In this document: positions 454 to 3,795 of the stretch, one piece after another | Layout of the letters: every line of letters starts with the position of its first letter | Position numbering within the stretch: position 1 is the stretch's first letter | DNA from: Candidatus Pacearchaeota archaeon | GTDB taxonomy: Bacteria > Patescibacteriota > Minisyncoccia > Minisyncoccales > Minisyncoccaceae | Direction of reading: 5' to 3' | Assembly (NCBI GenBank): GCA_035362415.1 | Contig: DAOSDM010000005.1 | Location: 1-41,870, forward strand | Length of the DNA: 41,870 nucleotides | Made by a program: the position numbers and the translations under genes | Notes under the pieces: model-generated | What the model was told of the DNA's origin: nothing | The model's input: the letters and a program-made list of their open reading frames with translations, nothing else | Databases searched by the model: none

Positions 454-1350
454 TTAAAAAGAACTACTTAAATTTTTTATCCTTTGAAAATATTCTTCTT
501 TTGAGATTGAATTATTGTTAAGTAAAGAATTTAATCCTGCAACATAATTTTGTTTCACTTGAGCTGTTGATAAAACATTATCAAACAATCTAATATCGTC
601 AAACTTCCCTCTTATGAAATGACCCAAAGAAGAAGCATAACTTCCAAATATTAAATCACTATCATTATCTATTTTTAAAATGCCAGAAGCACTACGCCAA
701 CCCTTAAATTCTCCATTAACATAAAGTCCCAATCTCTGACCGCTACGATTATATAGAAAAACCAAATGATACCAAGTTTCATTAGAGTTTAAAACATTTG
801 CCCAGCTGCGAGATACCATACTTGTTCCATTAGCATATTGCCAATAAACATCCTCTTTATTGGTATCACTAAGCCAACTCCATAAATAACCGACCGTTCC
901 TGATTGCGATCTTTTTTGAAAAAAAGTTGGATACGAATCAGGATTACTGCTTGGCTTGTAATACCAAAGCATTATTGTTAAATCGTCCAAATGGAATTTT
1001 TGATTGTCTGAAATTTTAAAATCTTGAGCTCCGCTTAATGAAATGCATGCTCCAGCAACACATTGATTACTTTCTTTTGTAATATAGCTGGTTGAATTAC
1101 TTGTTGCATTTATTCCTCCCCAAGAATCTAAAACAATATTACTCGCATCATCAAATCTCCATTCGGAAATTAAATTAAGCAATGATTCATTTCTGAAGCT
1201 ATCATTAAAAACCTTTAGCTTGGCTATGTTAGCTTTACCGATTGAAGAAGAAGTAGAGATCATTATTACTCCTGCTAGTATTCCTATTATTACTATAACA
1301 ACAAGAAGTTCTATTAAAGTAAATGATTGTTGTTTGTTTCTATTTATCAT
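454..1350 (-). CDS. type IV pilin-like protein with C-terminal LamG/concanavalin A-like lectin domain (paralog 1)
   Basis: The N-terminus KQQS|FTLIELLVVIVIIGILAGV is a class III/prepilin signal with Glu+5. The C-terminus carries the LamG_3 signature (...WYHLVFLY..., GKFDDIRLFDNVLSTAQVKQNY). It overlaps the upstream paralog by 11 nt. Confidence 0.8.
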   Translation of the reverse strand: MINRNKQQSFTLIELLVVIVIIGILAGVIMISTSSSIGKANIAKLKVFNDSFRNESLLNLISEWRFDDASNIVLDSWGGINATSNSTSYITKESNQCVAGACISLSGAQDFKISDNQKFHLDDLTIMLWYYKPSSNPDSYPTFFQKRSQSGTVGYLWSWLSDTNKEDVYWQYANGTSMVSRSWANVLNSNETWYHLVFLYNRSGQRLGLYVNGEFKGWRSASGILKIDNDSDLIFGSYASSLGHFIRGKFDDIRLFDNVLSTAQVKQNYVAGLNSLLNNNSISKEEYFQRIKNLSSSF

Positions 1351-2230
1351 AGGCTAGTTCGTTTATTCTTTCATTGTATTCTTTATTAGATATGTTTCCA
1401 TTACTTAGCATTGAGTTTAGTCCTGCGATGTAGTTTTGTTTGATTTCTGAAGTAGACAAGGCTGCGTTGTATATTCTTACATCATCAATTGACCCAGTCA
1501 TGTTATAACTATCGTGATTCTGTGTTCTTCCTATATCAAAATTATAATTATTATTTATACTTTCAGTAAAAGAGCTAATATTTCTGATTGCTCCAGGAGC
1601 TTGAACTCCGTCTAAATATCCAATTAAATTCGAGCTTCTATTAAAAGAATAAACTACATAATGCCACTCATTATTCAAAACATTTTGTATTGCTGCTCCA
1701 TTAGCATTTAATACACCGTCAGCAAAAATAACACTTATTTGAGAAGTAGATATCAATATTTCAAATCCAGGATATATTGCTGACCAATTCCCTACTCTTT
1801 TTCCCAAAATACCATTTGTTTCCCCTTGACTTAAAGCCTTAATCCAAAATGAAACAGAAAAATTACCTTTGTCAAAATTTAAATTATCTGGTTTTCCATA
1901 ATCAATAAAACCAGCTCCATTAAAATTATAACATGTTCCAGAAACGCAATTATCTATAAGTAAGGGAAGGGTTGTCCCGCCGAGTGATCCATCATTATTC
2001 CCCCAAGAATCCAATGTTTTTCCAGATATTTCTGGTTCATCAAATGTCCATTCAGATACTAGATTTAATAATAGTTCTTCTTGAACAGTATTTGAGAATG
2101 TTTGAGCTTTAGCAAAGTTAGCTTTATCAATTGAAGAAGAAGTAGAGATCATTATTACTCCTGCTAGTATTCCTATTATTACTATAACAACAAGAAGTTC
2201 GATTAAAGTGAAGGATTTCCGTTTATTCAT
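1340..2230 (-). CDS. type IV pilin-like protein with LamG lectin domain (paralog 2)
   Basis: MNKRKS|FTLIELLVVIVIIGILAGV. LamG motifs present: FSVSFWIK, EWHYVVYSF, GSIDDVRIYNAALSTSEIKQNY. Confidence 0.8.
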   Translation of the reverse strand: MNKRKSFTLIELLVVIVIIGILAGVIMISTSSSIDKANFAKAQTFSNTVQEELLLNLVSEWTFDEPEISGKTLDSWGNNDGSLGGTTLPLLIDNCVSGTCYNFNGAGFIDYGKPDNLNFDKGNFSVSFWIKALSQGETNGILGKRVGNWSAIYPGFEILISTSQISVIFADGVLNANGAAIQNVLNNEWHYVVYSFNRSSNLIGYLDGVQAPGAIRNISSFTESINNNYNFDIGRTQNHDSYNMTGSIDDVRIYNAALSTSEIKQNYIAGLNSMLSNGNISNKEYNERINELAYDK

Positions 2231-2264
2231 ATCTACATTATTATACTTTACCTAAACAGATAAT

Positions 2265-2876
2265 TCAATAAATTAAAGGAACAAAAACAAACCCAGGAAT
2301 TTCTTTTTTTTCTATTCTATCTTCAGATTTTTTATATACTTTAAAAATAGAATTTTTTACAGGAATAACCATTGATCCGCCAACTTTTAGCTGATCAACT
2401 AGTTCCTGCGGAATCTCTTTTGCTGTTGCAGATACTAAAATTTTATCAAAAGGTCCTTTCTCTTTTAGTCCAAGATGTTGTGTTGCTTGATATATTCTTG
2501 TGTTTTCTAAATTATATTTTTCTAAATTATATCTGCCAAATAAAACAAGATCTGGAATAAGCTCTACTCCACAAACCCTACCTCTAATACCTACAATGTA
2601 TCCCAAAAGAGCAGTTGTCCAACCCGAACCAGAACCCACATCCAAAATTCTATCCCCTTTTTTGGGACTAAGTATTTCAAGCATTAGAGCTACTGTTGAT
2701 GGTTGAGAAATTGTCTGATTAAAACCAATACTTAAAGGATAGTCATTATATGCTTCATCAGCATATTTTGTTGGAATAAAATCTTTCCTATCTATTTTCT
2801 TAAAAGCCTGAATTATGCTTTTTGTTTTTAAGATATTATTATGAGTTAAAAAATATATTAACTCTTTTTTATTCAT
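2265..2876 (-). CDS. pcm: protein-L-isoaspartate(D-aspartate) O-methyltransferase
   Basis: Contains the TISQP motif and the LDVGSGSGWTTALL SAM-binding motif. Length (203 aa) is typical for pcm. Confidence 0.85.
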   Translation of the reverse strand: MNKKELIYFLTHNNILKTKSIIQAFKKIDRKDFIPTKYADEAYNDYPLSIGFNQTISQPSTVALMLEILSPKKGDRILDVGSGSGWTTALLGYIVGIRGRVCGVELIPDLVLFGRYNLEKYNLENTRIYQATQHLGLKEKGPFDKILVSATAKEIPQELVDQLKVGGSMVIPVKNSIFKVYKKSEDRIEKKEIPGFVFVPLIY

Positions 2877-2880
2877 ACTT

Positions 2881-3795
2881 TTATTTTAATGCTGATAATG
2901 CATTAATCCTTTGATTGTATTCTTGTTTAGATATATTTTTGTTTATTAATAAAAGATCCAAACCTGCAATATAGTTATATTGTATTTGAGATAATGCTAA
3001 TGCTTCGTTGTACATTTTAACCTCATCAAGAACCCCTTTAAAACTGTTTGTTGCTAAATAAAGATTTCCTGAAGGAATACTGCCTACTGTGGAGCATTCC
3101 GCATAAGAAGAGGAGCCGTTATCTAATAATCCATCTATATAAATATCTGGTGTCGTTTTATTTCTATCAAATACTCCCACAACATGATGCCATTTATCGT
3201 CATCGATAACCTTATTTGAATATCTATAACAACTATTTCTTAAATATATTAATGCTTTTTTAGTCGTTGAATGAGGGTAATCAAATACCCCTTGCCAATT
3301 AGTGATGCTAGAAATATTTAAATATAAAACTGACCCTCTTATGATATTATTTGTTTTTCCCCAAAATTCCCATGTAAAACTATTGTCTCCTATGGCTGGA
3401 TAATTAGTCATTTGATTTATGTATTGAGCTGTATCAAACTTTAAACAAGTTCCTGAGATACAATTATTCTCACTCATCCATCCATATGTATTTGTATCTC
3501 CATAACCAGCTGTTGTGTTTACATCAAACCCTACAAGAGGACCAGTGAAATTTGAACTCCATGTGTCTTTAGTTAAAGTTCCCGATCCTTCATCAAAATT
3601 AAATTCAGACACTAAATTCATCATCATGCTGTTTTTAATAGTTTCTGAAAACGCCTTTAGTTTAGTAATACTAGCTTTATCAATTGAAGAAGAAGTAGAG
3701 ATCATTATTACTCCTGCTAGTATTCCTATTATTACTATAACAACAAGAAGTTCGATTAGAGTAAAAGACTTTCTGTACATAATTAAATTATACAA
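2881..3795 (-). CDS. type IV pilin-like protein with LamG lectin domain (paralog 3)
   Basis: MYRKS|FTLIELLVVIVIIGILAGV; the true start is probably the Met at 3780. LamG motifs: WHHVVGVF, GVLDEVKMYNEALALSQIQ. Confidence 0.8.
   Translation of the reverse strand: MYNLIMYRKSFTLIELLVVIVIIGILAGVIMISTSSSIDKASITKLKAFSETIKNSMMMNLVSEFNFDEGSGTLTKDTWSSNFTGPLVGFDVNTTAGYGDTNTYGWMSENNCISGTCLKFDTAQYINQMTNYPAIGDNSFTWEFWGKTNNIIRGSVLYLNISSITNWQGVFDYPHSTTKKALIYLRNSCYRYSNKVIDDDKWHHVVGVFDRNKTTPDIYIDGLLDNGSSSYAECSTVGSIPSGNLYLATNSFKGVLDEVKMYNEALALSQIQYNYIAGLDLLLINKNISKQEYNQRINALSALK

Follow-up and report, generated by a model that had tools for sequence, protein, structure and literature searches.

Divergent LamG-pilin genes of a Minisyncoccales genome share a 71-nucleotide head tract that appears to be kept identical by gene conversion

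Near the start of a 41,870-nucleotide stretch of DNA from a Minisyncoccales bacterium (contig DAOSDM010000005.1 of assembly GCA_035362415.1, deposited as Candidatus Pacearchaeota archaeon; the whole stretch is called the window here), three genes each encode a type IV prepilin N-terminus fused to a LamG/concanavalin A (ConA)-like domain. The genes, here called pil1, pil2, and pil3, share a 71-nucleotide (nt) block of identical sequence, while their lectin-like parts are only 28 to 39% identical in pairwise comparisons. How is such a block kept identical in otherwise divergent genes, and what use would the organism have for them? Bacteria of the candidate phyla radiation (CPR), or Patescibacteria, are thought to live attached to host cells. 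To our knowledge, no attachment organelle other than type IV pili has been demonstrated by experiment in this group. We consider it probable, though well short of certain, that pil1, pil2, and pil3 belong to a CPR family of modular LamG-pilins whose heads are homogenized by gene conversion and which form a standing repertoire of binding domains.

Results

The three genes lie on the minus strand and encode modular type IV pilins of 299 amino acids (aa) (pil3, 2881..3780, from the ATG at 3780), 296 aa (pil2, 1340..2230), and 298 aa (pil1, 454..1350). A first-pass annotation of the sequence had reported a shared 71-nt block and lectin-like remainders of about 30 to 40% identity, and both observations hold. 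The block lies at 3683..3753 in pil3, where it specifies mature-pilin residues +5 to +28 (ELLVVIVIIGILAGVIMISTSSSI), at 2130..2200 in pil2, and at 1241..1311 in pil1, always on the minus strand. It occurs exactly three times with 0 mismatches, and a match was found in 0 of 100 shuffles. Over their whole length, the other two proteins are 44% and 35% identical to pil1.

The age of the three genes was judged from silent positions. The number of identical codons at identical residues was compared with a saturation expectation, in which synonymous positions are random draws from the codon usage of the window. Outside the block, the counts were 41 of 84 for pil1 and pil2 (41.4 expected), 36 of 62 for pil1 and pil3 (31.8 expected), and 42 of 78 for pil2 and pil3 (40.4 expected). 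This synonymous saturation extends even to the conserved C-terminal tail. Inside the block, 22 of 23, 22 of 23, and 23 of 23 codons were identical in the same three pairs, against 8.7 expected in each. A permutation test on runs of silent identity gave P values of ≤5e−5, 8e−4, and 1e−5 for the three pairs. Because synonymous sites outside the block are saturated, the paralogs are ancient, and recent duplication cannot explain the block.

Comparison with related genomes places the duplications in time. Orthologs of pil2 in other genomes are 64 to 68% identical to it, compared to 34 to 39% for its own paralogs; therefore, the duplications predate those species splits. The block follows the opposite pattern. 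In its lectin part, pil2 is 64% identical to an ortholog at locus L086 (L086_b), yet 10 of 72 block positions differ between the two, while pil1 and pil3, with lectin parts only 34 to 39% identical to that of pil2, differ from it at just 1 and 0 positions, respectively. Likewise, the paralogs of another Minisyncoccales genome (L087) show 1 to 4 block differences among themselves and 6 to 13 compared to other genomes. Because synonymous sites are saturated elsewhere in the genes, block variants are genome specific, and orthologs are closer in the lectin part but differ in the block, we read the identity of the block as being kept by recombination between copies, i.e., gene conversion, as the first-pass annotation had supposed. 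The pattern is the signature of concerted evolution.

Identity of the block at the nucleotide level is not obligatory. Among 41 pilin genes on related contigs, 22 have 0 block mismatches and 5 have 1 or 2. About 8 give the same block peptide by way of 5 to 12 synonymous differences; another 2, at 10 and 12 differences, each have a single altered residue. In other genomes, too, the block peptide is encoded by different codons. Homogenization is strongest in the population of the window and weaker in some relatives.

The three genes are a small sample of a genome-wide family that has dozens of copies per genome and is specific to CPR bacteria of the Paceibacteria/Minisyncoccales type. A word-indexed search returned at least 1,334 homologs, nearly all of about 280 to 310 aa with the same two domains and, where named, assigned to Paceibacterota or Minisyncoccales. 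An exhaustive search of 50%-identity representatives gave 657 clusters at E ≤ 1e−30. A scan of metagenome contigs with the 47-nt block core turned up 25 stretches, which encode 31 distinct proteins; 25 of these 31 genes are complete with start and leader, and the other 6 are cut by locus ends. One 126.8-kb contig from a related population holds 7 copies with the exact 47-nt core, or 10 if diverged blocks are included, and single metagenome-assembled genomes contain 13 to 16 copies spread over numerous short contigs, several of them ending in the head. Among the best matches to pil2 were giant proteins, including P0125 (7,018 aa) and P0126 (6,910 aa), that have up to 24 LamG-like repeats in tandem. 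Judging from these matches, very large surface proteins also make use of this type of domain. In three independent assemblies, one Minisyncoccales member is split into an N_methyl open reading frame (ORF) of 116 to 119 aa and a LamG ORF of 231 aa (L087, 11728-12736; L088, 8311-9328; L089, 5133-6150), which may be a real frameshift or a pseudogene.

The head is not the only homogenized segment of the family. The last 35 codons of pil2 (1343..1447, minus strand) are 93 to 98% identical in nucleotide sequence to the tails of paralogs at other loci (84 to 98% counting one register-shifted outlier), while the lectin bodies of the same genes are only 52 to 57% identical. This common tail of about 95 to 105 nt is 93 to 99% identical in 9 of 10 members, with 80 to 87% in the one register-shifted member. 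A few subtypes of the C-terminal part of the first pilin helix (alpha1-C) and one common tail are joined to unrelated lectin bodies, which gives the family a mosaic, segmental structure. Within the window, the common alpha1-C subtype and the common tail are found in pil2 only, the most "consensus" of the three genes; the tails of pil1 and pil3 have diverged and are about 67 to 69% identical to that of pil2.

The junction between tandem copies is also uniform. The start codon of pil1 lies inside the last codons of pil2, and the resulting 11-nt overlap is GCCTATGATAAATAG (1340..1350, minus strand), at a junction of LAYDK-stop in pil2 with ATGATAAATAG in pil1. Of 25 adjacent pairs from several genomes, 15 overlap by exactly 11 nt, and tandem junctions of this kind were found in the window and at loci L086, L087, L010, L017, L041, L094, L102, and L105. 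In these junctions, the upstream gene ends in a conserved LAY(D/E)K-stop region that contains the ATG of the downstream gene. This arrangement suggests translational coupling and implies a duplication unit of gene length.

The fusion of pilin and LamG domains proposed in the first-pass annotation was borne out by profile searches in all three proteins. Pfam N_methyl (PF07963) scored 36.0, 33.9, and 28.7 bits across the set of pil1, pil2, and pil3 (cutoff, 21.2), TIGR02532 scored 22 to 28 bits (cutoff, 16.3), and Laminin_G_3 scored 54.7 to 71.3 bits (gathering cutoff, 27.6); pil2 additionally matches Pfam Toxin_R_bind_N. The N-terminus matches GspG, PilA, and ComGC models, with the best scores for GspG and GspH. 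Leaders of MNKRKS, MINRNKQQS, and MYRKS (the last in pil3) are followed by FTLIELLVVIVIIGILAGVIMI, and the F, T, L, I, and E of the head, including Phe+1 and Glu+5, are invariant across 45 to 53 homologs, as expected of type IV pilins, which have a short basic leader, Phe or Met at +1, Glu at +5, and some 20 hydrophobic residues that form the N-terminal part of alpha1. Ser is found at −1 (KS|FTLIELL) across about 100 LamG-type genes, two of which have Ala, compared to mostly Gly in the short classical, likely major, pilins that related genomes encode in their type IV pilus clusters (L033 and L083). Existing NCBI and JGI annotations describe the window proteins as prepilin-type N-terminal cleavage/methylation domain proteins and their relatives as LamG-like jellyroll proteins.

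Structure models give the same order of parts: in pil3, the leader MYRKS, the head FTLIELL, a LamG jelly roll, and a two-helix tail. The AlphaFold model of pil2 (mean predicted local distance difference test [pLDDT] score of 83) has a continuous helix at residues 9 to 56, followed by a jelly roll and two C-terminal helices, and the AlphaFold2 model of pil3 (pLDDT of 75.6) agrees with it (helix at 8 to 55, jelly roll, and helices at 263 to 279 and 285 to 297). The conserved tail noticed earlier after the LamG domain is thus about 35 aa long and is predicted with high confidence in both models to form two helices. The sequence patterns that had been given for the LamG domain and the tail are matched exactly by pil2 and approximately by the other two proteins; the DDVRIYN.ALS motif corresponds to the canonical C-terminus of Laminin_G_3 domains. 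Conservation is 98% in the head, 80 to 85% in alpha1-C and the tail, and 29 to 37% in the jelly-roll core and loops, and the family has two invariant cysteines. In the models, the jelly roll is most similar to the N-subdomain of the clostridial neurotoxin receptor-binding fragment, with an arabinanase accessory domain, sialidase CBM40 lectin domains, pentraxins, and LamG modules ranking next. A profile search of PDB sequences paired the body with LamG-like domains and the neurotoxin Hc fragment and the head with PilA, MshA, GspG, and geopilin. Ligand binding is putative; the Laminin_G_3/ConA-like superfamily to which the proteins belong also holds nonlectin members. The NCBIfam model "TafC family fimbrial protein" also gave a match, covering the LamG-like part only at 45 bits versus a cutoff of 410, and we see no relationship to that family, which belongs to haloarchaeal Tat-dependent fimbriae (PMC11821415).

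Four genes, all on the minus strand, lie in the region in the order pil3, pcm, pil2, and pil1. The first-pass annotation had the strand right but described the three pilin genes as adjacent; pcm (2265..2876, minus strand), which encodes a protein-l-isoaspartate O-methyltransferase (PCMT, PF01135, E = 5e−57), separates pil3 from pil2. The spacing is 4 nt between pil3 and pcm and 34 nt between pcm and pil2, and only the overlapping pil2 and pil1 are truly tandem. With this spacing, the four genes probably form one operon. A promoter and terminator scan found no terminator-like site within the cluster and 25 promoter-like sites versus 22.4 expected, no excess over shuffled sequence. The TTG at 3795 from which the ORF lister starts pil3 (2881-3795) is probably wrong; the ATG at 3780 matches independent gene callers and public records, and the 299-aa product is found exactly in public collections as HOI60084.1. 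A TATAAT hexamer at 3787..3792 (minus strand), 6 nt upstream of this ATG, is a low-confidence candidate −10 box read from the sequence. No Shine-Dalgarno sequence is visible before the ATG, and the operon transcript may be leaderless. Because pcm is missing from the tandem pilin arrays of L086 and L087, we treat its link to the pilins as incidental.

A decayed duplicate of the module formed by the pil3 3′ end and pcm occupies 1..383 (minus strand), with a pcm remnant at 1-174 and a pilin remnant at about 177-383. Its segments match the intact module at 93% (1-133 to 2340-2473), 89% (134-253 to 2829-2949), and 89% (257-301 to 3188-3232) identity. Both remnants have internal deletions, and those of the duplicate are about 355 nt and 236 nt long. 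The relic runs past the window edge in an overlapping public contig (L001), to position 12311; the contig of the window ends inside the repeat. This relic, the pcm gene, the homogenization of the tail at the nucleotide level, and the dozens of copies of the family had all been overlooked in the first-pass annotation. A 154-nt direct repeat (90% identical; window 303-456 and L001 13400-13553) brackets the relic and a Fic-domain gene, and its second copy runs into the 3′ end of a convergent gene for a lamin-tail-domain protein. It suggests an insertion or duplication event downstream of pil1.

The locus itself is authentic. Assembly collapse had been named as a possible source of the shared block and was looked at; the pil3-pcm-pil2-pil1 cluster is reproduced at 100% identity and in the same arrangement in five independent assemblies from different samples. 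Three independent short contigs (L003 to L005) stop inside the pil1 block, at window positions 1271-1279, which is the behavior expected of a true multicopy repeat. An apparent structural variant on a 22-kb contig (P0122, 269 aa, and P0124, 99 aa) was rejected; it comes from a 3.5×-coverage assembly that is 98.2% identical to the window and collinear with it, with 81 gap openings, and its differences are sequencing errors, not recombinants. When related metagenome contigs were compared with the window for synteny, the matches were limited to pilin junctions and a 345-nt fragment of a pil3 ortholog.

The window is the replication-origin region (dnaA, dnaN, rnpA, and yidC) of a low-GC (about 30%) CPR genome and also holds genes for penicillin-binding proteins, an alpha-2-macroglobulin, and a type IV secretion-like cluster. 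The LamG-pilin genes are dispersed among housekeeping genes, outside pilus operons. On the same contig, about 3 kb beyond the left edge of the window, a gene (L001 15220-16491) encodes a 423-aa assembly ATPase of the PilB/GspE type, which is without the long N-terminal region and adjoins a 309-aa protein without a family match. This ATPase gene lends support from genomic context to a possible incorporation of LamG-pilins into a filament.

A second modular pilin, with N_methyl joined to an FGE-sulfatase/C-type-lectin fold, is encoded about 8 kb beyond the left edge (L001 19480-20691; also L115 11978-12980). Downstream of it lie Avd, a 117-nt template repeat, and a reverse transcriptase. The template and variable repeats of this pilin differ at 10 positions, 9 of which are template adenines, and the element is therefore a diversity-generating retroelement (DGR). 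Read in this way, the element shows that the organism diversifies pilin-borne binding domains. Over the first 48 nt of the 71-nt block, the head of this pilin shows 94% identity. Action of the DGR on the LamG-pilins was considered and rejected; the template repeat matches the FGE-sulfatase pilin only, and pil1, pil2, and pil3 show no pairing of template and variable repeats.

Elsewhere in the window, positions 27269-35019 hold the type IV secretion-like cluster, with a VirB4/TraG-like ATPase, a PrgI-family protein, a T4SS_pilin protein, and large ORFs without a family match (704 and 920 aa). The alpha-2-macroglobulin (11088-17420) is of the bacterial type, has 2,110 aa and Big_5 domains, adjoins a PBP1-type gene, and is unusually large for a reduced genome. 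In related contigs, a LamG-pilin gene that is 99.4% identical between L100 (1-1024) and L114 (2940-3966) has wholly different upstream neighbors, with an IS30-like transposase near one of the two. Flanking islands beside family members appear variable; movement of the gene as a cassette was rejected for this pair, as the homology stops 100 nt upstream of the gene owing to different, possibly mobile, flanking genes.

Discussion

We propose that the LamG-pilins are processed by a prepilin peptidase that would cleave before Phe+1 of a class III signal peptide with Ser at −1 and that type IV pilus machinery would insert these bulky proteins as low-abundance, probably tip-located, subunits. This placement is suggested by analogy with Streptococcus sanguinis PilC and by steric reasoning. 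Each LamG-pilin would then display a different binding domain to glycans or proteins of a host cell or the environment, and a repertoire of pilus-borne binding domains, which the first-pass annotation had also proposed, is the function that we rate most plausible. Short-tract gene conversion among dispersed and tandem copies holds the head identical, over 71 nt here and over 47 to 71 nt in at least 22 genes of related populations, and many copies are also homogenized in the alpha1-C segment and the 3′ tail. The assembly helix is under purifying selection, which preserves enough identity for recombination to continue, and the lectin body between the constant blocks is free to diverge. Unequal exchange at the blocks could account for tandem arrays whose members overlap by a fixed 11 nt, for copies being gained and lost, and for the relic at 1-383. 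With the three pil genes and pcm in one probable operon, the repertoire would be available simultaneously, with no on/off cassette switch. Because all copies are complete genes and are probably cotranscribed, we favor a standing repertoire over a switch of the Neisseria type.

Several observations weigh against this proposal. Concerted evolution is far weaker in some relatives; the L086 paralogs differ at 5 to 8 block positions, and the JAQTWS paralogs average 0.92 identity within a genome versus 0.89 between genomes. The assemblies compared yielded no recombinant junction and no copy-number variant. A Ser at −1 is unusual among prepilin peptidase substrates; Ala or Ser at this position is tolerated by some of these enzymes, notably archaeal ones. 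Neither model contains a classical alpha/beta pilin head, alpha1 running straight into the LamG jelly roll, and the assembly competence of the LamG-pilins is therefore an assumption. No type IV pilus operon or pilus machinery gene lies in the window. The operon status of the cluster follows from spacing only, the promoter scan being uninformative. Processing, assembly into pili, tip location, ligand binding, and coexpression are all things that we infer.

The constant blocks could also have a more active role than the one proposed above. They might serve as handles by which LamG bodies are copied from poorly expressed into a few expressed loci, as in the pilE/pilS or Borrelia vls systems of antigenic or phase variation, and head and tail together might form a genome-wide cassette-exchange system that shuffles, duplicates, and deletes bodies, moves them between strongly and weakly expressed loci, and changes host recognition at the population level. 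Many members do have constant blocks on both sides of a hypervariable body, gene conversion is clearly acting between copies, each genome has dozens of donor-like copies, and leader, alpha1-C, and tail types occur in mosaic combinations. We nevertheless think exchange of this kind unlikely, in the population-level form as much as in the phase-variation form, and the comparison with Neisseria-like pilin variation cassettes made in the first-pass annotation found no support. All copies in the window, and nearly all others, are full genes with a start codon, leader, and head, and apart from the one decayed relic at 1-383, which includes pcm, no 5′-truncated, promoterless silent copies were found. 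Among the 25 complete genes, which come from genome fragments only, no body was found in two head/tail or locus contexts within one assembly. The tails of pil1 and pil3, at about 67 to 69% identity to the common tail, are too dissimilar for homologous exchange; the cluster has the same arrangement in all five assemblies; and the three genes belong to one probable operon. An inversion switch of the shufflon type was likewise rejected, as the blocks are direct repeats in separate complete genes and only weak, AT-rich inverted repeats at chance level were found. No recombinase was found among the window ORFs of ≥90 aa scanned against Pfam, which include all of those within 12 kb of the trio. A different objection concerns the pilus itself. 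The LamG-pilins may be membrane anchors or components of a short pseudopilus that display the LamG domain, for example, for substrate capture, in the manner of the archaeal bindosome or the pseudopilins of type II secretion systems. The Ser at −1 in place of the Gly of the likely major pilins, the missing classical head domain, the scattering of the genes among housekeeping genes, and the best scores against GspG and GspH all point this way. We hold it to be distinctly unlikely, since the head is near-identical to that of pilins of the same lineage, with Phe+1, Glu+5, and a 48-residue alpha1 whose conservation is that expected of a filament-core interface, and since the characterized lectin-bearing modular pilins are pilus borne (PMC9934059).

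The remaining explanations concern the block alone. Selection on the DNA or RNA sequence, whether for mRNA structure, a regulator or small-RNA site, or a translational or targeting signal, would account for a sharp-edged tract of 100% identity in at least 22 genes, and a 12-bp hairpin can be drawn inside the block. It is quite improbable all the same; folding energies of the 5′ regions and of the block alone resemble those of shuffled sequences (z of −0.4 to −1.3), a search of window positions 1-5000 gave no Rfam match, and an RNA element was rejected on these grounds. Genes on the same contigs as exact copies encode the same peptide with 5 to 12 synonymous changes, the codons used in related genomes would break the hairpin, and identity clusters by genome, as conversion predicts. 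Another explanation dispenses with gene conversion and supposes that the genes were duplicated recently within the lineage, that positive selection then acted very fast on the lectin part, and that the head is identical for want of time to change. This would fit the tandem arrangement, the decayed extra copy, and the very variable ligand-binding domain. The saturated synonymous sites outside the block, tail included, and the closer relationship of pil2 to its orthologs than to its paralogs make this very improbable. That the block is an artifact, through collapse or chimerism at a repeat, is scarcely credible; short contigs do break inside it, but the five independent assemblies are identical, each copy is in frame with unique flanks, and the block is present in 31 distinct genes of other assemblies.

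The interest of the family is twofold. It is an unusually clean bacterial case of segment-specific concerted evolution, in which gene conversion freezes a 71-nt tract inside substitution-saturated genes. It is also a concrete candidate for a host-range determinant, because it occupies several per cent of a genome of roughly 1 Mb, fuses an invariant pilus-assembly helix to a hypervariable lectin-like domain, shows visibly active recombination, and lies near a DGR-diversified pilin. The family supplies testable reagents in the form of recombinant LamG domains and antibodies for cultured Minisyncoccales. Should the cassette-exchange explanation be true instead, the family would be a bacterial counterpart of the variant surface protein families of parasites, alongside a DGR on the same contig. 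The domain architecture itself is already catalogued and automatically annotated.

Comparison with known systems

Literature searches for LamG or concanavalin pilins in CPR bacteria, Minisyncoccus pili, and concerted evolution of pilins found no description of this family and no account of its expansion, the segment-specific concerted evolution, the Ser at −1, the helical tail, or the overlapping tandem junction. The protein architecture is known, and it is the pattern of concerted evolution that appears to be undescribed. The combination of N_methyl (IPR012902) with PF13385 (Laminin_G_3) is among the most frequent architectures of modular pilins, with CPR examples (Raynaud et al. 2021, PMC8179133). 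These modular pilins have the same domain architecture as pil1, pil2, and pil3, in which an N-terminal IPR012902 motif is joined to an extra domain with no specific tie to type IV pilus biology. The 2021 study is a database census and does not include the expansion of this family, its homogenized head and tail, the Ser at −1, the two-helix tail, or the tandem overlap.

A parallel is offered by the minor pilin PilC of S. sanguinis, which carries a ConA-like lectin module (PDB 7OA7 and 7OA8; Shahin et al. 2023, PMC9934059); in this species, lectin-bearing modular pilins are adhesins located at the tip (PMC9934059). PilC has no detectable homology to the window pilins, as it was not among the PDB profile matches at E ≤ 0.01. 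It is a 52.8-kDa protein with a short pilin module and an immunoglobulin (Ig)-like module and is encoded in a single 22-kb pil locus. Unlike PilC, the window proteins have no pilin head or Ig module, end in a conserved helical tail, and belong to a massively multicopy family. The likeness of the body to the N-subdomain of the neurotoxin receptor-binding fragment (Toxin_R_bind_N) is one of fold and superfamily only, at 15 to 20% identity, and the LamG-pilins have none of the translocation, protease, and beta-trefoil parts of clostridial neurotoxins.

Two systems of pilin variation invite comparison at the level of gene organization. In Neisseria, silent pilS copies without a promoter and 5′ constant region donate variable segments to one expression locus. 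The likeness to pilE/pilS lies in multiple pilin-related copies, gene conversion, and a variable C-terminal part. Unlike the Neisseria copies, those of the LamG-pilins each carry the 5′ head and a start, and conversion homogenizes the constant part, with no diversification of an expression site seen. The PilV tip adhesins of the type IVb thin pili of R64 have alternative C-terminal receptor-binding parts that set partner specificity, and these are exchanged by the shufflon, in which Rci and sfx repeats bring about site-specific inversion inside a single gene. PilV and the LamG-pilins both join a constant N-terminal pilin part to alternative C-terminal receptor-binding parts; unlike the shufflon segments, the LamG-pilin variants are separate complete genes with direct repeats and no nearby recombinase. 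The proteins with a C-type-lectin fold that are diversified by DGRs represent a second route to variable pilin-borne binding domains, one that is present on the same contig. Unlike these DGR targets, the LamG-pilins vary by paralogy and not by retromutagenesis.

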